Shown here: positions 48,824 to 58,026 of the stretch, piece by piece
How positions within the stretch are numbered: the first letter of the stretch is position 1
How the letters are laid out: the number at the start of each line of letters is the position of its first letter
Assembly: GCA_016937995.1 (NCBI GenBank)
Contig: JAFGVM010000037.1
Location: forward strand, 1 to 64,000
Direction: 5' to 3'
From: Candidatus Delongbacteria bacterium
Lineage (GTDB): Bacteria > UBA4055
DNA length: 64,000 nt
Translations under genes and position numbers: made by a program
Notes under the pieces: model-generated
What the model was told of the DNA's origin: nothing
Database searches by the model: none
Seen by the model: only the letters and a program-made list of their open reading frames with translations

Positions 48824-50371
48824 TTAAAGGTATATAACCAGATTCTGCCCCGGTTTAATAATATTTCTGTTGTCTATCTTGTTCCATGCCTTTAATTTAT
48901 TATGATTAACTTTAAATTTTCTTGAAATACCCCAAACACTATCACCGCTTTTTACTCTGTAATTAACTTTTTTGCGACCATTAAGATAATATTTCTCATC
49001 ATCGTAGTATGATAAATATTTATTGTTAAAGTCCGTGAACCACTTTTCACTCGTAGGAGGTTTTATAACTTTAATTATATCACCGGCAGAAATGTCCCTG
49101 CTGTTGTTCAGATCTTTGATCCCCTGTTTTTTCACATTGAGATCATTTGCGATCTTATCATAAGTATCATCTTCCTTTACAGTATAAACATCAACCGAAT
49201 AAATATCACTTTTTTCCAACTTGTTGAATTTTTCTCTGAACCCCATTTTTGACATAACAGGTATTACTACCGGGTAATTCTTTGCATAAGGAGGTAAACA
49301 CCATTGTCTGAGCTGAGGGTTGTTCTTCTTGATCTCTTCGTAAGTAATATTTGCAAGATCGGCTATTATCTTTAAATTTACACAGCTGTCTAATTGTACA
49401 GTGTCATATAATGCTTTTTCTGACTTGTATTTAAATCCGTATTTTTCAGGTTCTTTTCCGATCTTGATCAAAGCTCTAAGTTTTGGAACGTACTCCCTGG
49501 TTTGTTTAGGAAGAGTTGTCAATTGCCAGAAATTGTTTGTCTTATGTTTTTTTACTCTTTTACTAACACCACCTTCACCACAGTTATAGGCTGCCAGTAC
49601 AAGATTCCAGTCTTCAAATCTTTTGTAGAGAACTTTGTAAAATTTTGCGGCTGCAATAGTGGATTTTATGACATCTTTCCTTTCATCTTCCCACCAGTTA
49701 ATGTTCAGACCAAAATTCTTTGCCGTAGATGGGATGAACTGCCATAATCCTGCAGCTTTAGCGTAAGAATGTGAGAATGGAACATATCCTGATTCCGCCA
49801 TCGGAACATATGCTAATTCTTCAGGAAGTCCAAAAGCTGTAAATACTTTCTTCACATCATCAACATATCTTGCTGCTCTGTGTAAATAAGTTTGAGCTGT
49901 TTTTCTTCTCTTTCCATTATAAATTTCAAGAAAATATTTTACGAGATTAAGTTCTTTGTCAGGAAAAGGTGCATATTCGATTTTTTCATCGCTAACAAGA
50001 TCAAGATCGATCTTGTCCAGATGAAATACCTTTTCCTCATTTGAATCATAGTCAATGTTCTCGACTATACATTTAAGGTTGTTGTAGTGGTCAAATATTT
50101 CTGTTTTTATGGAATTAAATTCTTGGGATGTTTCGGTATGTGCAGCTTCAACTGAATCGATGTATGCTATAATAGAATCATAAAAATATAATGAACCTTC
50201 AAAATTATTCTCTCTGACCAGCTTGTTTGCATGAACGCTCAATGATTCAAGATAGGCGATATCTTTCTCGAAAACATTGTCGCAAAACAGAGAAGCCTCT
50301 GACATAAGTATTGTCAGGATCAAAGTATTTATTACATTTTTATTCATTCTGCTATAGTGCCTCCCTGGCAT
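48824..50371 (-). CDS. mltD: MltD-type lytic transglycosylase with LysM domains
   Basis: LPEELAYVPMAESG, AAGLWQFIPSTA, LAAYNCGEG, LysM YRVKSGDSVWGIS. Confidence 0.88.
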   Translation of the reverse strand: MPGRHYSRMNKNVINTLILTILMSEASLFCDNVFEKDIAYLESLSVHANKLVRENNFEGSLYFYDSIIAYIDSVEAAHTETSQEFNSIKTEIFDHYNNLKCIVENIDYDSNEEKVFHLDKIDLDLVSDEKIEYAPFPDKELNLVKYFLEIYNGKRRKTAQTYLHRAARYVDDVKKVFTAFGLPEELAYVPMAESGYVPFSHSYAKAAGLWQFIPSTAKNFGLNINWWEDERKDVIKSTIAAAKFYKVLYKRFEDWNLVLAAYNCGEGGVSKRVKKHKTNNFWQLTTLPKQTREYVPKLRALIKIGKEPEKYGFKYKSEKALYDTVQLDSCVNLKIIADLANITYEEIKKNNPQLRQWCLPPYAKNYPVVIPVMSKMGFREKFNKLEKSDIYSVDVYTVKEDDTYDKIANDLNVKKQGIKDLNNSRDISAGDIIKVIKPPTSEKWFTDFNNKYLSYYDDEKYYLNGRKKVNYRVKSGDSVWGISRKFKVNHNKLKAWNKIDNRNIIKPGQNLVIYL

Positions 50372-50468
50372 CGCAGTATTATTAAACTGTGTATCTATTT
50401 TACAAGATCGAATAACTTTTCTTTATCATTCCTGGATCTCAATAATTAAAAATCTCAAGAATGCTGTT

Positions 50469-51842
50469 CTACAAACTGTCTTCTATTTCTTTCAGTTTTA
50501 ACTGAATGAGCTGCATTATCTCATCAAGTCTTTCCTGTGTCTGGGCTTCATATCTCTGTACTAAAGCAGGTTGTGTATTTGATGCTCTAAGAAGTCCGAA
50601 ACCATCATCAAAGATAACCCTTACTCCATCAACATCATTTACTTTATATCCTGCATTCTTAAAATATTCTACCGCTTTTTTAACTATCTCAAATTTCTTA
50701 TTGTCATCACTATCTAATCTTATTTCAGGAGTCATAATAGTTTTAGGAACATCTTTCAATAATTCAGAGATCGAACTTCCGGTAGTTGACATAATTTCAA
50801 GCAACCTTAAAGAAGCATAAAGTGCATCATCATGTCCAAAAAATCTGTCTTTGAAGAAAATGTGCCCACTTACCTCTCCACCTAATTCTGCATTTTCTTC
50901 TTTCATCTTAGCTTTGATCAGTGAATGACCTGCTTTCCACATAATTGCTCTTCCGCCAAGCTCTTCAATACCGTCATACATAGTCTGAGAACATTTAACT
51001 TCACCTATAATAGTTGCGCCGGGTTTTCTTGAAAGAATCTCTTTTGCAAAGATAAGCATAAGATGATCACCAAAAAGCATCTTACCTGTTTCACTTACGA
51101 TACCAATTCTGTCAGCATCACCGTCATAACCTATACCAAGATCAGCTTTTTCTTCCTCAACTTTAGCTATAAGATCGACCATATTCTTAGGAACAGTAGG
51201 ATCCGGATGATGATTCGGGAACGTTCCATCAGGCTTTGTATAAAGTTCAATAACTTCCATTCCGAAATGCCTGAATATCTCAGCTGCGACCTCTCCACCT
51301 GTACCATTCCCACCATCAACTACGACCTTTAGCTTTTTTTCGCCCATATTGATATTTTCTTTCATATAACCGAGATAATCTTCCTTAACTGAAATGGTAT
51401 CAAGTTTACCTTGTGCTCTGTCTGGTGGTTTTGCATAAAATTTATTTTCAAGAATGATATTTTTAAGAACTTGTATCTCTTGACCGAAAATAGAAGCAAA
51501 CTTTGTTGACATCTTCAGTCCATTCATATCTGAAGGATTGTGAGAACCTGTTATCATAACACTTGCATCAGCTTCAAGTTTATACTGAGCAAAATATAGC
51601 AATGGAGTTGTACATTGACCGATAGAAGTAATATTGATACCCAGTTCTATCATTGCTTTTGAAAAAGTACTAAACATATAATCAGCTGAAAGCCTTGCAT
51701 CAAAACCGATCACACAGTTATTAAGACCTTTTTCTGCCAGATATGTAGCTAATGCCCTACCGATATTAGTTACAATCTCAGGAGTAAAATCAGCCTCAAC
51801 TACTCCTCTAATGTCATATTCTCTAAATATATTTTCGTTCAC
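50469..51842 (-). CDS. Phosphomannomutase/phosphoglucomutase (AlgC-type)
   Basis: IFREYDIRG, ITGSHNP, DGDADR, GGEVSGH, LLRASNTQP. Confidence 0.95.
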   Translation of the reverse strand: MNENIFREYDIRGVVEADFTPEIVTNIGRALATYLAEKGLNNCVIGFDARLSADYMFSTFSKAMIELGINITSIGQCTTPLLYFAQYKLEADASVMITGSHNPSDMNGLKMSTKFASIFGQEIQVLKNIILENKFYAKPPDRAQGKLDTISVKEDYLGYMKENINMGEKKLKVVVDGGNGTGGEVAAEIFRHFGMEVIELYTKPDGTFPNHHPDPTVPKNMVDLIAKVEEEKADLGIGYDGDADRIGIVSETGKMLFGDHLMLIFAKEILSRKPGATIIGEVKCSQTMYDGIEELGGRAIMWKAGHSLIKAKMKEENAELGGEVSGHIFFKDRFFGHDDALYASLRLLEIMSTTGSSISELLKDVPKTIMTPEIRLDSDDNKKFEIVKKAVEYFKNAGYKVNDVDGVRVIFDDGFGLLRASNTQPALVQRYEAQTQERLDEIMQLIQLKLKEIEDSL

Positions 51843-51981
51843 AACTTATCTCCTTATGTTTTACACTCGCCTAAGATACGAAATGATTAACTGATACACA
51901 ACTGAAAAATACGTTTTTTATTAAAAGATTATATTCTCTCACAAAGGGCACTAAGACATGGAGAGTGTTTGTCAGATATGA

Positions 51982-52749
51982 CTATGCACTAGAAAGAGTT
52001 AAAGATTTTGTGATAGGATCTAGGGGAACTTTTGGAGTAGATGTATCACTACGGATTAATCTGTTAATAAATTTATTTTGAAGTTTTTTATACTCATAAT
52101 ATGTTTTTTCATATTCATCAATCTTTTCTATGTTTTTATAAAAATTTTTCAGATTAAGAATTCCTACTTTCCTTAATCTACCAATTTTAACAGCATATTT
52201 CCTGATGTATTTATATCTATCATTCTCAGGAAAAGTAATTCTAAATTTGTTTTTTTTAATCGCCCAAGCGATTAGCCTTTGTAAAAATTCCCTATCATCG
52301 TCTTTAACGTTGAAGAAATCACCTATTGATTGGTAAATGCCTTTAGCTCCATGAGCCCTATCACCATAAATGTAATTGCCAGTTTTTATGTAACTTTCAT
52401 GGGATATAAAATATGGAATTAAGAACTTATTAATATAATCTGCAATACTTGTTGAATTGCTTAATTGTAGTAATAAATCAAAATGTGTGGCAACACATAG
52501 TGCTTTATTACTTAATTTATGTTCATTTCTAACTTTATTTTCAGTTTCATATACTATTGGAGGTACCGTTGGGTAAGTTTTTGCAAATATTATCTTTAGC
52601 TTTGGAGCAGAATTTACAACAATATCTTCGTATCTAGCTTTAATAATAAATCTACCTTTTATCTCAAGATAATCACCTTTATCCACTATTTTCATCTCAG
52701 GATAGATCTGTTGAATATATTTGATACTTTTACATATTATTTCCCCCAT
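51982..52749 (-). CDS. CBASS-associated E2 (ubiquitin-conjugating-like) protein
   Basis: LKIIFAKTYPTVPPIVYET..HKLSNKALCV (E2-fold His/Cys), FLIPYF..YIYGDRAHGAKGI; start overlaps the CD-NTase 3' end. Confidence 0.72.
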   Translation of the reverse strand: MGEIICKSIKYIQQIYPEMKIVDKGDYLEIKGRFIIKARYEDIVVNSAPKLKIIFAKTYPTVPPIVYETENKVRNEHKLSNKALCVATHFDLLLQLSNSTSIADYINKFLIPYFISHESYIKTGNYIYGDRAHGAKGIYQSIGDFFNVKDDDREFLQRLIAWAIKKNKFRITFPENDRYKYIRKYAVKIGRLRKVGILNLKNFYKNIEKIDEYEKTYYEYKKLQNKFINRLIRSDTSTPKVPLDPITKSLTLSSA

Positions 52750-53669
52750 AGTTTTGCACCTGTTGTGTACTCTTTTATTTCTTCTTGCTCCTGTTCTTTC
52801 TTTAATGGGAAACATTCTCCAAATAGCTCTCTAAATACAAGAGAAGCTCGATTACCACTATTATTATTTAGAGCTGTATTAATATCATCTAAAAAATCTT
52901 CTAGGTTTGAAATTCTTTTACTTTTCTGATAATCGGACAAATCTTTCCACAAATCCTCATATGGTGATACCGGTTTAGAAATACTGTTCTCAGATTTCAA
53001 TGTATTAATAATTTTATACAGAGTGTTATATAGTGATTTGTCGTCTCTATCTTCATTCGGAACAAAGCAGTTAATACCTAAAATAGTTAATTCAATGCTA
53101 GTAAAATCAATATCTAAATAATCACGCCATGATTTTAAGTATCTAATAATCCTTGAATTTTGTTCATTGAATCTATTTTTGTAAAACCAATCCTTAAACT
53201 CTTTTGAATCACTATTAATCCATGAATTATCATTTGTCCTAGCCAAATATGCTTTTCCATCCTTTATAATATAAACCGGGATATCTAAATGATAGTATTT
53301 TCTATAATAAACTCTAACACAGCTTGTTTTACTTTCACAACCATCCTGAGTATGTCCTACTAATGACTTTAAAATATCCTGATGGATTTCATTAGGTTTA
53401 GGCCAAGAATCTGAGTCCTCATCAACATGTCTTAAATATAATCCATCGTCAATATCAACTTCAATATCTTCTTTAGGATTCAAAGCGGTATTAATTACAA
53501 ATGAACCTTGGGATTTAAACAGAGGAATATTAATTTTCAACTCATCTTTAAAATATGTTCTTATTTTATCCCTTACAGCATTTCGACTTTTTAAAATTTT
53601 TTCTTTTTTGGTTTTTGTAAGCTTAATCTTCTTGTTGAAATCACAAAATTCTTTATGAAAGTTTAACAT
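52737..53669 (-). CDS. CD-NTase (cGAS/DncV-like SMODS nucleotidyltransferase)
   Basis: SQGSFVINT, DIDDG, KTSCVRVYY..HLDIPVY, IRYLKSWRD, C-terminal tail ..GAKLWGK; GGAGG RBS. Confidence 0.9.
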   Translation of the reverse strand: MLNFHKEFCDFNKKIKLTKTKKEKILKSRNAVRDKIRTYFKDELKINIPLFKSQGSFVINTALNPKEDIEVDIDDGLYLRHVDEDSDSWPKPNEIHQDILKSLVGHTQDGCESKTSCVRVYYRKYYHLDIPVYIIKDGKAYLARTNDNSWINSDSKEFKDWFYKNRFNEQNSRIIRYLKSWRDYLDIDFTSIELTILGINCFVPNEDRDDKSLYNTLYKIINTLKSENSISKPVSPYEDLWKDLSDYQKSKRISNLEDFLDDINTALNNNSGNRASLVFRELFGECFPLKKEQEQEEIKEYTTGAKLWGK

Positions 53670-53677
53670 TTTACCTC

Positions 53678-54268
53678 CTAATATGTACCTTTTAATTTTT
53701 TACCTACAAATTTAGTTTCAATGGTTCCTTTTGTAGGTTCTTCTCTATTACTAAAATAATATCCTTTTAAATCGTTTTTTCCAATTGAGCAGTTTAATAC
53801 ACAAAAACCTTTATGCTCATTAATAGTATTTGAATTTTCAATCCCATCATTTTTATAAGCAAAACTAATCTCTATAGATCCGTCAGGTTTCATTATTAAA
53901 TGTTCATTGATACTTTCAGAACATGATATCAATTCATTATCATAGCTAAATTGTCTTATATATACGTAACTTGATGTTTGGGAAATTTCTATTATAATAT
54001 GAATTTCTTTACCACCGTTGTAGTTTGATTTTAATGTCCCTTCATACCTTCCAGAAACATCTTTAATATTTAATAGATATGGAAAATATTTCCATAATTT
54101 TTTATCGTATGCGATCAATACAAAGGAAATAAAAGCTATAGCTGATACAGAAGGTATCCAGTTAAACGTTTCAGGAATTAATGATACAATAATCGAGTGT
54201 ATAGCTATCAACGCAACAATAAAAAATATTAAAGTATTAACTTTATAGTATTTAAATGACAATTTCAT
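53678..54268 (-). CDS. Cap15-like CBASS effector (2 TM plus beta-barrel, S-2TMbeta)
   Basis: Two TM helices, then DVSGRYEGTLKS, IIEISQT, YKN, HKG, LKGYYFSNR..TKGTI. Confidence 0.85.
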   Translation of the reverse strand: MKLSFKYYKVNTLIFFIVALIAIHSIIVSLIPETFNWIPSVSAIAFISFVLIAYDKKLWKYFPYLLNIKDVSGRYEGTLKSNYNGGKEIHIIIEISQTSSYVYIRQFSYDNELISCSESINEHLIMKPDGSIEISFAYKNDGIENSNTINEHKGFCVLNCSIGKNDLKGYYFSNREEPTKGTIETKFVGKKLKGTY

Positions 54269-54285
54269 AAATTACCTTTTTGTAT

Positions 54286-54486
54286 TTAACAATGATATTT
54301 TCCCTCAATATAGCGATTGTAAAAAGTTCCTTTTGATCTAGAATTTATAAATCTTTCAAATACTTCTTGCGGAACTCTACAAAAATCATAAGTCCGTCCT
54401 TGTTTAAATGTGATCTTCAATCTCATTATGTCAGGCTCGTAACCAATTTTCCTGATTGCTCTAGATCTAACTGGAATCATTTCCAT
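54286..54486 (-). CDS. KTSC domain protein
   Basis: MIPVRSRAIRKIGYE..LKITFKQGRTYDFCRVPQEVFERFINSRSKGTFYNRYIEGKY. Confidence 0.9.
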   Translation of the reverse strand: MEMIPVRSRAIRKIGYEPDIMRLKITFKQGRTYDFCRVPQEVFERFINSRSKGTFYNRYIEGKYHC

Positions 54487-54487
54487 T

Positions 54488-55084
54488 CTATTTTTTCCCC
54501 ACTATCTTCTCAACCACCTTATAAACCGTACTCCCAGCACTCTTCAACCTCTCCTCAAACGATCCTTTATCCTTATCCTTTGCCCTTTTCACAGCAGCAT
54601 GAATCATTTTATCTGTGATCTGATTTACATCAACACCTTTATCATAATTTGGAAGATATTTCTTAAGCTTCTTTGTACAATCCTTAGAATTCTTAACCCC
54701 TTTCCCATCTTCAAAATGCAGAAGCAACCAATACTCAAACTTAGGATTGCTCAAAGCAAAACCGTAATTCTCTTTCTCCTCTGCCCAATCGTGCAATTGC
54801 TTCAACTGCTTATCAGTCCACTCATCCCTGTCAACAACAAGCCAGGCTTCATCTGTTTCTAAAAGGTTTTCCTCTTTTATATAATCCTTCATTCTCTTTA
54901 AAACACTAAGCGGTGAACTCTTTTTCTTACTTTTAAGACATTTCACTCTGATAATTGAACCTCTATTATCAAAGATCGAGAAATATTCCTGTTCAGTCTT
55001 TTGACCTTCAGTAGAGATGATATAAAGCTTTTTATACCTCCTCGTTCCTGTCTTACGTTTAAACGATCTTCTTTTAGGCGGCAT
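54488..55084 (-). CDS. RloB family protein (AbiLii-like, TOPRIM-like)
   Basis: IISTEGQKTEQEYF, AWLVVDRD, ALSNPKFEYWLLLHF, STVYKVVE; TAATG coupling to the ATPase. Confidence 0.9.
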   Translation of the reverse strand: MPPKRRSFKRKTGTRRYKKLYIISTEGQKTEQEYFSIFDNRGSIIRVKCLKSKKKSSPLSVLKRMKDYIKEENLLETDEAWLVVDRDEWTDKQLKQLHDWAEEKENYGFALSNPKFEYWLLLHFEDGKGVKNSKDCTKKLKKYLPNYDKGVDVNQITDKMIHAAVKRAKDKDKGSFEERLKSAGSTVYKVVEKIVGKK

Positions 55085-56412
55085 TAACAATTACCTTTTT
55101 TATTTTGCAATGTCTTCTTCAAGTTTATCTTAGGAGTACCACCTAATCTGCCCTGCAGATAGCTTTTTCTGATATCCTTATCGTATCTGATCTCTTTATA
55201 TTCAATAAATGAACGTAAACTTGACATACCTTTCTCATCTCTTTCAGCGATCCACATCTCATCTCTGCGAAGCAGTTCCTGATCCATCAAAAGAAGATCA
55301 TGAGTAGTGAACAACAATTGAGAACGGCTATCCTTGCTACAATTACACAAAAACACTTCGATCAGCTGTTTTGTCAAAGTAGTATGTAAACTTCTGTTCA
55401 CTTCATCTATTATATAGACCTTATTATTTTTAGTCATTGACAGATCCAGAAATGCAGGTAAAAGATCAATTACTCTGAGTGATCCATCTGATTCCTGATG
55501 TAATTCAAACTTTTCTTCATCACCATCCGTTTTGGAATGATATGCAACTAACTTTTTTGCCTGCAATTCATTCTTCTCTCTTGAAATAATATATCTTTCG
55601 TTCGTAACCATTGAATGCAAACGAACCGCTGTGTTTTTTGTAACGTCCTCTCTTAGTTTATTCCTAAGATCTTCCGGTAACGGTATATTTTCAAAAGGAA
55701 AACTGATATATTCAATATGTTTTATGCCTGTATCAAGTGTCGCAAGCATATCATTCATTCTTTTAAACAGAGGATTTTTATCGTCAAGAAACTGTTCATA
55801 TTGGCCAAATCGTGTATCCGGTGCAATAAGTACAAGAGTATATTTGAACCAGTTATAAACAGGTGCAAATGTATTAACATTCTGAGAAACACTGTTAGTT
55901 AAAAATAACTGATTCGCTCTTGTACCTTTAAATGCAAATTGCAACAGTCCATCTTTCGTAAGAGGAATATGCATATTAGCTTTATCTTTCTTTCGATGAT
56001 ACAGCATTTTCTCACTGGTACTTGTAATCTGAACCAGTTTTTCTTCAAGTACTTCTTTTTGAGAAACAGAAAAACTAAATTCATATATTTTTTCATCGAT
56101 CAGCATTTCAAGTTTAAATTTTGACGGCTTTTTAATACTTTGTTTATCAAGTCTGAACGGTTCAGTAAGGATCATACTTTCAGGTCTAGTTCCATCAACT
56201 ACAAAATCTTTTATAAAAGATAGTGCCTGAAACAGATTTGTTTTACCTGATGCATTACCGCCATAAATAGAAGCAACAGGTAAAATTCTTGTCTGATATT
56301 TACTTAATTTCGGTACTCTGTCCCCATGTTGTCTTTCCTTGCTCGCTACCATCGAAAATTCAGAAGATTCTTTAAATGACAACCAGTTCTCCACTTTTAA
56401 ACTTATAAGCAT
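55084..56412 (-). CDS. AAA_21/RloA-type ABC-like ATPase (AbiLi-like)
   Basis: [57 protein letters not shown]. Confidence 0.9.
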
Positions 56413-56452
56413 TTTTCCAATCCTTTATGTTATTTTTTCTCCCCCAATTTCA

Positions 56453-56481
56453 AAGATACAATATTATTTTTCTTTTGTCAA
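56453..56481 (-). promoter_or_regulatory. Near-consensus sigma70 promoter of the defence operon
   Basis: TTGACA-N17-TATCTT about 40 nt upstream of the ATPase start; imperfect palindrome at 56486-56507 abuts the -35. Confidence 0.7.
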
Positions 56482-57000
56482 TTGTTTAATGAGATTATTT
56501 CTCTTAATTCATTATTTTTATTCAGTCGCATGCCTATTTTACAATACTTTGCAAGCCATACAGCTTTGCGTTCCTCTTATCATATATTTTTCGAACGGTA
56601 TGAGATCAAGTCTTAGTGAGTTAATCGAAGACTTAGACTTGATTATTTTTACTTACTTTGCACTTAACGTAATTTTGGTTACCTGACGAAAGTGACTTTT
56701 GATTGTTGTGCAAAATACATTTCTTGATATTTGGGTAGACATGGATTTTGAAATGAAAAGTACCGGAAGTCCCAAAATTAGCGTTCGTGCTGCCCTTTTC
56801 TTTCCTCCCGATTTATCGGGATTTTGGGCAAGCAAAAGAAAGCTGAAGACATCATTTAATACTCCTAGATACCCGGATCAAGTCCGAGAATGACATTTAT
56901 CCTAGCGGGATATAACTCCCCTAACCACAGGTTTCAACCTGTGGGATAAAAAAAAGGGCGTAATAAATTACACCCCTACATCAACAATATTTGACCAAAA

Positions 57001-58026
57001 TTACCTTGCAGGTGCAACCAACCCAACTTTCTTATATACCTTCGAAAGTAACTTGTATGCCGAACTCTGTACGTTCGCAGCTCCCTGCTTAAGAATCTGA
57101 TCAAGATATTTTTTATCCTTTAGAAGTTCATCGTGCTTTTCCTTGATAGGTCTGAGAGTCTCAACAACAATTTCAGAAAGGTCTTTCTTAAAATCTCCGT
57201 ATCCAGAATTAACATATTTCTTTTCGATCTCAGAGATCTCTGTATCAGTCAATGTAGAATAAATTGTGAGCAGGTTATTGATCCCGGCTTTTTCAGGATT
57301 ACTTTGATCATATCTGATCTCCATATCTGAATCTGTAACAGCACTTTTGATCTTTTTAGCTGTAATATTAAGATCCTCTGTAAGGATAATAGTTCCTTTA
57401 GGTGATTCAGCGGATTTACTCATTTTATTCTCAGGATGCTGCAGGTCCATTATCCTCGCTCCCTGCTTAGGAATGATAGCTTCCGGAATATTAAAAGTAG
57501 GTGAGTAAGTATAGTTGAATTTTTCAGCAATATCTCTTGACAGTTCAAGATGCTGTTTCTGATCATCTCCGATAGGAATCAGATTTGCATTATATAACAA
57601 TATATCAGCAGCCATTAAGACCGGATAAGCAAAAAGTCCAACATTTATAAATGTTCCTTCCTTTGCAGACTTATCTTTATACTGTGTCATTCTGTTCAAC
57701 TGACCCATTCCGGTCAAAGTGTTCAATATCCAGGTGAGTTCAGTATGTCCTGTAATATGAGACTGAACAAATATATTAGATTTCTCAGGATCCAGACCTA
57801 CAGCAAGATAAAGTGCCAGCATTGAATAAGTTCTTTCCCTCAATTCACTTGGAACCTGAGGAACAGTCAGAGCATGAAGATCAACGATTATATAATTTTT
57901 TGTATAATCCTGATATTTATCCTGCATATTCACAAAATTCTTCATTGCTCCGATATAATTACCCAGAGTCAGATTATTTGTAGGCTGAATACCGCTTAAT
58001 ATTGTTTTCTTTTCTGTATTTTCCAT
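57001..58026 (-). CDS. trpS: Tryptophanyl-tRNA synthetase
   Basis: SGIQPT..TLGNYIGA, YPVLMAADIL, GDDQKQHLE, KMSKS. Confidence 0.97.
   Translation of the reverse strand: MENTEKKTILSGIQPTNNLTLGNYIGAMKNFVNMQDKYQDYTKNYIIVDLHALTVPQVPSELRERTYSMLALYLAVGLDPEKSNIFVQSHITGHTELTWILNTLTGMGQLNRMTQYKDKSAKEGTFINVGLFAYPVLMAADILLYNANLIPIGDDQKQHLELSRDIAEKFNYTYSPTFNIPEAIIPKQGARIMDLQHPENKMSKSAESPKGTIILTEDLNITAKKIKSAVTDSDMEIRYDQSNPEKAGINNLLTIYSTLTDTEISEIEKKYVNSGYGDFKKDLSEIVVETLRPIKEKHDELLKDKKYLDQILKQGAANVQSSAYKLLSKVYKKVGLVAPAR

Follow-up and report, generated by a model that had tools for sequence, protein, structure and literature searches.

The six-gene block described here lies in a 64,000-nucleotide stretch (hereafter the window) of contig JAFGVM010000037.1 from a Candidatus Delongbacteria bacterium (assembly GCA_016937995.1), and its closest described relatives are two kinds of anti-phage system. 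The first is AbiL. The AbiLi/AbiLii pair of Lactococcus lactis and the RloA/RloB pair of Campylobacter are encoded by overlapping, co-oriented genes for an ATP-binding cassette (ABC)-type ATPase and an RloB/TOPRIM-like partner, and PMC13064643 and PMC11464382 describe AbiL as an ABC ATPase plus TOPRIM system, grouped with the phage anti-restriction induced system (PARIS). PARIS (AriA/AriB) follows the same two-part logic and has tRNA as its target. The second is the system of antiphage signalling based on cyclic oligonucleotides (CBASS), and within it E2-CBASS, a recognised class that PMC12948482 places in 616 genomes, with cyclases reported to be longer and 73.65% of them to belong to clade G. 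In the example from Serratia marcescens, SmCdnG–SmE2, a nucleotidyltransferase of cGAS/DncV-like type (CD-NTase) and an effector are accompanied by a lone E2 with a catalytic cysteine and by neither an E1 nor a JAB protein.

Judged from its genes and from related loci, the block would be a defence islet inserted into the pair formed by trpS and a phosphomannomutase (PMM) gene, with AbiL first, E2-CBASS behind it and a KTSC gene at the seam. We give a probability of roughly 70% to the reading that these are two known, self-sufficient anti-phage systems plus a KTSC passenger or accessory, stacked in a trpS–PMM hotspot and probably co-transcribed. Shared transcription would then reflect stacking, not mechanistic dependence. 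The features on which this reading is built are as follows.

55084-56412, minus strand: AbiLi, ABC-type (AAA_21) ATPase, 442 amino acids (Pfam, PADLOC)
54488-55084, minus strand: AbiLii/RloB, TOPRIM-like nuclease partner, 198 amino acids, ATG start (Pfam, PADLOC)
54286-54486, minus strand: KTSC-domain protein, 66 amino acids (Pfam)
53678-54268, minus strand: Cap15-type CBASS effector, 196 amino acids (Pfam, PADLOC, hydropathy)
52737-53669, minus strand: CD-NTase (cGAS/DncV-like cyclase), 310 amino acids (PADLOC, Pfam)
51982-52749, minus strand: E2-only Cap2-like protein, 255 amino acids, ATG start giving MGEII... (PADLOC)
56453-56481, minus strand: sigma-70-like promoter TTGACA-17 nt-TATCTT of the AbiL module (promoter scan and conservation)
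56487-56509, minus strand: AATTAAGAGAAATAATCTCATTA element with a GAGA...TCTC inverted repeat, just 5' of the -35 hexamer (kept in three aligned AbiL upstream regions)
51843-57000: inserted segment between trpS and the PMM gene (the two genes abut in three family relatives)
56850-56985, minus strand: trpS terminator hairpin and short dispersed hairpin repeats at the left edge of the insert (terminator scan, repeat matches)
50469-51842: flanking gene of the phosphoglucomutase (PGM)/PMM family
57001-58026: flanking trpS, class I W/Y tRNA synthetase

Anatomy of the block and its two modules

The six open reading frames (ORFs) are all co-oriented, head to tail, on the minus strand. Read from the sequence, AbiLi and rloB share a TAATG overlap, rloB and KTSC are 1 nucleotide (nt) apart, KTSC and Cap15 17 nt, Cap15 and CD-NTase 8 nt, and the CD-NTase and E2 genes overlap by 13 nt. 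The ORF list holds no integrase within 51843-57000, and Rfam gave no match in 51700-57100 (E up to 0.1). The initial annotation, made from the letters alone, had named the six genes, given the same junctions and placed the block between the phosphomannomutase gene and trpS without an integrase. Its gene identities all agree with the Pfam and PADLOC domain calls, its junctions are exact, and the flank calls and ORF list confirm the location. It had also recognised two modules in the block, one AbiL-like and the other a short type II CBASS, which is right by the same two sources, and in the PADLOC and profile runs that it proposed AbiLi, AbiLii, the cyclase, the two-transmembrane (2TM) effector, E2 and KTSC were all matched.

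An assembly chimera of two loci is an extremely improbable source of this arrangement. The genome is a 99-contig metagenome-type assembly and GC content drops at the seam between AbiL and the genes behind it, as a chimera might have it, but a 19.7-kb contig of run X1 spans 50000-56687, and mismatch-free contigs from another sample of the same study (X2) cover 54083-55628, 53226-53901 and 51361-52125. The first of these bridges the Cap15–KTSC–RloB–ATPase junctions without mismatch, and we therefore take the arrangement not to be chimeric.

The AbiL pair is complete by every feature inspected and is predicted to be an anti-phage system. AbiLi matches Pfam AAA_21 (3.5e-38) and PADLOC AbiLi (6.8e-78), with its Walker A motif GxxxxGKT and Walker B residues D336-E337 invariant in 26 homologues; RloB matches Pfam RloB (3.1e-37) and PADLOC AbiLii (1.3e-24), with E26 and D85/D87 invariant in 31 homologues (this and the other homologue alignments include the window protein). 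The genes correspond to the AbiL type as PADLOC and DefenseFinder define it, an ATPase with an adjacent, co-oriented AbiLii/RloB. The AriA model of PARIS also matches AbiLi (5.8e-35), but the window RloB is not AriB and no AriB model of PADLOC matches it. By analogy with PARIS, the AbiLi ATPase would act as an infection sensor that restrains the AbiLii/RloB nuclease until a phage trigger frees it. In contrast to the Lactococcus and Campylobacter pairs, the window pair comes from an uncultured Delongbacteria-like genome and has four extra genes on the same apparent transcript.

Behind it, the CD-NTase, Cap15 and E2 genes have the composition of a short type II CBASS, as the initial annotation had held: a cyclase with an intact GS...DxD...D signature, an effector, an E2 with its cysteine, and neither an E1 nor a JAB ORF in the block. 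The cyclase matches PADLOC cyclase PDLC00774 (7e-86), Pfam DncV-like NTFase (1.4e-18) and SMODS (7.8e-13), and residues G55-S56, D72, D74 and D129 do not vary among 36 homologues. Unlike SmCdnG it is short (310 amino acids) and only a far relative of that enzyme, with 7ljo as its closest solved relative (4.1e-63, as against 2.3e-8 for SmCdnG, 8hsb), which makes it an atypical member of the E2-CBASS cyclases. Its tail G-A-K-L-W-G-K fits a motif of its family, G-[AP]-K-P-W, that most of the 36 homologues share. For the E2 gene, Pfam gives no match. PADLOC calls it as E2 (4.3e-29), it matches eukaryotic ubiquitin-conjugating (UBC) enzymes with the catalytic cysteine aligned, and that cysteine is kept in five E2 relatives from related loci.

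The effector matches Pfam Cap15_CD_rec (5.8e-13) and the PADLOC 2TM effector (1.1e-26), and no solved structure matches it in sequence. As in the Cap15 β-barrel membrane effectors of CBASS, a hydrophobic hairpin at the N-terminus, which hydropathy shows as two stretches between residues 5 and 55, precedes a cyclic-nucleotide receptor β-barrel domain. This effector sets the window apart from its kin. Six of the seven closest CD-NTase loci (L161, L163-L166 and L170; 50-56% identity) have a patatin-type effector (CapV), CD-NTase and E2, and in the seventh (L162) the patatin and CD-NTase ORFs are shortened; in more distant relatives with Cap15, it follows the cyclase at a distance of about 2.3 kb, whereas in the window it stands in front. 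The module would be expected to work as other CBASS do: upon infection the CD-NTase would make a cyclic nucleotide, which Cap15 would bind through its β-barrel and respond to by disrupting the inner membrane. The E2, judging from Serratia E2-CBASS, would regulate the cyclase by covalent action on its C-terminal tail, here presumably at the G-A-K-L-W sequence.

The trpS–PMM gap and the seam behind rloB

In all three family relatives with both genes in the fetched stretch (G010, G005 and G008), trpS directly adjoins the PMM gene within the unbroken order apbE – pyrK-like – trpS – PMM – SLT/LysM – HU; in a fourth relative (G004), trpS alone was seen in the fetched stretch. Because the two genes abut in these three, bases 51843-57000 of the window are extra, a 5.1-kb insertion.

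The AbiL pair is also present in two other genomes of the genus, where different genes follow it. In G002, trpS is followed by an Fe-alcohol dehydrogenase gene, AbiLi (88% identity) and AbiLii (82%), and 22 nt behind rloB by a gene for a 119-amino-acid M1E1E6-like 'integron cassette protein', after which the contig ends. In G001, a 4.2-kb contig (L032, 1-4177) carries AbiLi (81%, truncated where the contig ends), then AbiLii and other cargo. The DNA of the window and G002 is near-identical through rloB and alignment is lost within about 4 codons of the rloB stop; across five Delongbacteria rloB genes, DNA homology likewise ends within a few codons of the stop.

Base composition and codon use change at the same point. 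GC content is 0.34-0.37 in AbiL, 0.32 in KTSC, 0.26-0.29 in Cap15, CD-NTase and E2, and 0.33-0.37 in five neighbouring host genes. Measured against 32 host ORFs, synonymous-codon z is 0.6 for AbiLi and 0.0 for AbiLii; it is 1.63 for KTSC (a weak value, resting on 63 informative codons), 1.4 for Cap15, 1.75 for CD-NTase and 1.2 for E2. The window's CD-NTase was found in none of the 40 relatives searched. The cargo looks foreign because its GC is low, its codon z raised and its CD-NTase missing from these relatives. The simplest history would make the AbiL pair and its promoter an older resident of the genus, while KTSC and CBASS would be arrivals of higher AT content, starting at the rloB stop.

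The gap behaves like the variable-cargo defence islands and hotspots in holding differing defence genes in three same-genus genomes and in being empty in three family relatives. It departs from typical islands in that the cargo is welded to the resident AbiL operon (gaps of 1-22 nt) and does not form separate transcription units, and in that no integrase is seen in the block.

Further genes of G001 touch on the same gap. On L032, a 719-amino-acid AAA_13-like ATPase (weak PDC-S06/S46 matches) lies 11 nt after AbiLii, followed at 31 nt by an unrelated KTSC gene whose product is 28% identical to the window KTSC; this ATPase and KTSC may be a pair. On another contig of this genome (L033:196-2473), a PDC-S05/ORF6N protein (9.2e-117) and a 351-amino-acid protein without significant family match are encoded upstream of the PMM gene, which adds to the variable contents of the hotspot.

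The promoter named in the initial annotation, TTGACA-N17-TATCTT, is found at 56481-56453. The promoter scan is at chance overall (27 promoter-like sites against 27.6 expected from shuffles), so the hexamers mean little alone. The -35 TTGAC, the -10 TATNTT and the 17-nt spacing are kept in all three aligned AbiL loci, those of the window, G002 and a third Delongbacteria genome in which AbiL is located elsewhere (L082), and the spacer sequence varies. The element AATTAAGAGAAATAATCTCATTA upstream may be an operator. The conservation of hexamers, spacing and upstream element, set against a spacer sequence that differs, is good evidence for a genuine promoter and for its being part of the AbiL module.

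A minus-strand terminator scan found no terminator-like site inside the six genes, bearing out what the initial annotation had said of them; the only terminator found is that of trpS, at 56977-56954. The E2–PMM spacer (51843-51981, 139 nt) folds no better than shuffles (z +0.77) and holds no terminator. Gaps of 1, 17 and 8 nt are too short to house a promoter, and the cargo is therefore most likely read from the AbiL promoter, with the six genes probably co-transcribed from it; nothing from the one metatranscriptome run of the study maps to the block. Transcription from the defence operon may also run on into the PMM gene.

The hairpin units after the trpS terminator (56850-56985) have 41 matches in their own genome and are also kept after trpS in G002; they look like a repetitive extragenic palindromic (REP)-like family of dispersed intergenic repeats. 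In the three relatives trpS and PMM, being side by side, are probably co-transcribed. The insert splits them in the window, where expression of the PMM gene may now rely on transcripts that read through from the defence operon, or else on a promoter inside the 139-nt spacer. Within the block, a second promoter-like match at chance level, TTGAGA-17-TAGAAT (10/12), straddles the rloB stop and KTSC start at 54485-54513, its -10 arising from the rloB/KTSC junction itself. It could drive a transcript from near the second ATG of KTSC, the codon from which the database copy of the KTSC protein (64 amino acids) is called.

KTSC and the search for the linkage in other genomes

We surveyed the neighbourhoods of RloB, CD-NTase and KTSC. 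The RloB survey gave 1738 homologues (E up to 1e-5), and a scan of one genome per species turned up 339 relatives, from which 80 loci (50-82% identity) were retained; of these, 70 have at least 500 nt and 50 at least 2500 nt downstream of rloB. The ATPase is present in 77 of the 80. KTSC occurs in none of them by our own hidden Markov model (HMM; built from 99 KTSC sequences, with positive controls at 3e-40 for the window and 2e-17 for G001), nor do relatives of Cap15, CD-NTase or E2 (tblastn; CD-NTase also by profile). The first ORF downstream of rloB is co-oriented in 29 of 77 loci. Other stand-alone defence genes do stand tightly behind rloB, namely Dsr1 in L120 (1.1e-76) and a ThsB-like TIR gene in L082. 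In the latter metagenome-assembled genome (MAG; L082:5600-7392), a gene for a 434-amino-acid protein without Pfam or PADLOC match overlaps the rloB stop with its start, and the TIR protein, cut by the contig end, comes next; together they may form a TIR-based pair, so far undescribed, that has been added to AbiL.

The CD-NTase survey gave 84 homologues and 68 genome loci; KTSC is in none of the 68 and RloB in three. Among 5.8 billion proteins the best non-self homologue of the CD-NTase is 61% identical, and the named matches come from Treponema and Bacteroidales. The KTSC survey covered 46 metagenome, 5 genome and 4 viral loci, 55 in all, and found RloB in none and a CD-NTase in one (L045), as a SLATT-SMODS pair 125 nt upstream of KTSC. 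The recurrence of the RloAB–KTSC–CBASS linkage, for which the initial annotation had wanted genomes searched, did not materialise: the tandem set is in 0/80, 0/68 and 0/55 loci.

The Pfam scan of KTSC neighbours covered the 34 metagenome loci in which KTSC is a free small gene (111 ORFs), as distinct from the 12 whose KTSC-bearing ORFs are larger, and 21 of the 46 neighbouring ORFs from the 5 genome and 4 viral loci. They include integrases, an OLD-type nuclease, an SMC-like ATPase, Abi_2, a reverse transcriptase, an Mrr nuclease with a KAP NTPase, a Mu transposase, a CI-type repressor and a terminase. Neighbours of these assorted kinds are what mobile elements and defence islands hold. In two metagenome loci (L045:7001-7404 and L052:7001-7401), a 68-69-amino-acid ORF without Pfam match overlaps the KTSC gene by 4 nt, and the two may be a small two-gene cassette.

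The window KTSC is a full-length match to PF13619 (1.1e-20, profile positions 2-58 of 58). It matches the free KTSC structure 4rgi (1.7e-11) and, at 4.4e-6, the C-terminal arm of HerA in SIR2-HerA (8wiv, residues 633-691). That arm holds the same small domain, whereas in the window KTSC is a free 66-amino-acid protein with no HerA or SIR2 nearby. Close homologues number only three among the 5.8 billion proteins (100, 82 and 61% identity), distant ones 2860. Its fusion partners (Sel1 repeats; ankyrin with Mrr_N) give no clear lead, and the literature found, mostly as titles and abstract openings, holds nothing that links KTSC with AbiL or CBASS. KTSC is most likely a passenger or accessory that arrived with the cargo, and in character most likely a small oligomer- or nucleic-acid-binding adaptor of the kind common in mobile elements and beside defence ATPases.

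Whether KTSC has work to do in either module can be weighed from the same data. As an accessory of the CBASS cargo, it would be a small DNA-binding regulator or an adaptor of cyclase or effector that arrived with the CBASS genes, a tentative proposal that we consider rather unlikely. The homology breakpoint lies upstream of KTSC, its codon z of 1.63 resembles that of the CBASS genes (1.2-1.75) and not that of AbiL (0-0.6), and the KTSC behind the SLATT-SMODS pair in L045 is a 56%-identical relative. Set against these are the want of KTSC in all 68 CD-NTase loci, the single CD-NTase in 55 KTSC loci and the 63 codons behind the codon value; further, an 82%-identical KTSC (P0002, on a 5465-bp contig) exists and no CD-NTase above 61% was found, which points to KTSC existing apart from this CBASS, provided that its contig is not truncated. 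A third AbiL subunit, docking on the ATPase oligomer as HerA's KTSC-containing arm does in SIR2-HerA, is less probable still. It would account for the 1-nt gap to rloB and for the HerA match, since in PMC11472057 the arm with the KTSC region touches the neighbouring ATPase subunit, and KTSC genes also stand behind genes for P-loop ATPases: an AAA_13 one in G001, an SMC-like one in L048 and, one gene further on, an OLD-type one in L043. But KTSC is absent from all 80 loci of this AbiL clade, sister genome G002 included, and breakpoint and codon use place it with the cargo.

One system or stacked systems

The initial annotation went beyond gene content and proposed that the six genes are one layered system, in which the ATPase, RloB and KTSC would sense infection or gate cyclic-nucleotide signalling by the CD-NTase. 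This receives no support from the comparison and is, in our estimate, quite improbable. In its favour are the one conserved promoter, the lack of an internal terminator and the gaps of at most 17 nt; AAA15/21 ABC ATPases are, moreover, known to pair with varied effectors (PMC11464382), and AbiL adjoins the closest E2-CBASS relatives in three of seven loci and is co-inherited there. However, AbiL stands without KTSC or this CBASS clade in 80 of 80 loci and the CD-NTase clade without KTSC in 68 of 68, different genes follow the same AbiL pair in sister genomes, with the cargo swapped at the rloB stop, and composition and codon use split at that stop. Both modules are also complete by PADLOC models, each with its own presumed sensor. 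In the spirochaete loci the modules are divergently transcribed and lack KTSC, and in one of them (L166) AbiLi is split while the CBASS ORFs are whole.

Several observations nonetheless weigh against stacking of independent systems. The block is more tightly spaced than a typical island, which forces co-expression, and the spacing suggests translational coupling of KTSC to rloB. A co-oriented ORF lies within 30 nt of the rloB stop in 13 of the 80 AbiL loci, and the G001 cargo behind AbiL also includes a KTSC gene. Three of the seven closest E2-CBASS loci (L164, L165 and L166, all from spirochaetes) have AAA_21 and RloB genes directly upstream; L164 differs from L165 and L166 by about 35-40% in all five proteins, and the AbiL plus CBASS block has therefore been long inherited or has moved as a unit. 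Of 151 sampled genomes of this spirochaete family, 29 have RloB and four have this CD-NTase clade (two of them broken), and both intact cases are adjacent to AbiL pairs. Such adjacency goes beyond random placement, and island clustering with common descent may explain it.

The spirochaete arrangement is not that of the window. There the AbiL pair is divergent from CBASS, with 100-295 nt between the starts, no KTSC and another effector, and the window AbiL proteins are 28-35% identical to the spirochaete ones; the association in the window therefore arose separately.

In L164 (1279-8653), a Treponema MAG, AbiL and the patatin–CD-NTase–E2 genes are flanked on either side by a Mutator-family transposase gene, the two copies being 100% identical and in direct orientation, so that the block is a composite-transposon-like defence cassette. 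Decay is seen as well: in L166 (2293-3683) the AbiLi gene is split into two ORFs and the CBASS genes are still whole ORFs, and elsewhere in spirochaetes the CD-NTase is split (G191) or carries stops (G096).

The repeated neighbourhood of AbiL and this E2-CBASS clade is the single finding that keeps a functional link alive, and may equally be island clustering plus common descent. In its fullest form such a link would make AbiL and this E2-CBASS clade co-selected partners, joined at least twice, in tandem here and in a divergent transposon-like block in spirochaetes, with the AbiL promoter and a KTSC adaptor tying CBASS expression or activation in the tandem form to the ABC-ATPase sensor. We regard this as unlikely, if marginally less so than the layered system. 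If it were true, it would be a new cooperation of an ABC-ATPase sensor system with cyclic-nucleotide signalling, and would give a role to the poorly understood KTSC domain.

Read as stacked systems, which we prefer, the locus would be a clean example of defence-gene pile-up, in which a resident AbiL operon has differing cargo at the rloB stop in three same-genus genomes. It would be of use in the annotation of defence islands, and serves as a warning that tight spacing is no proof of one machine.

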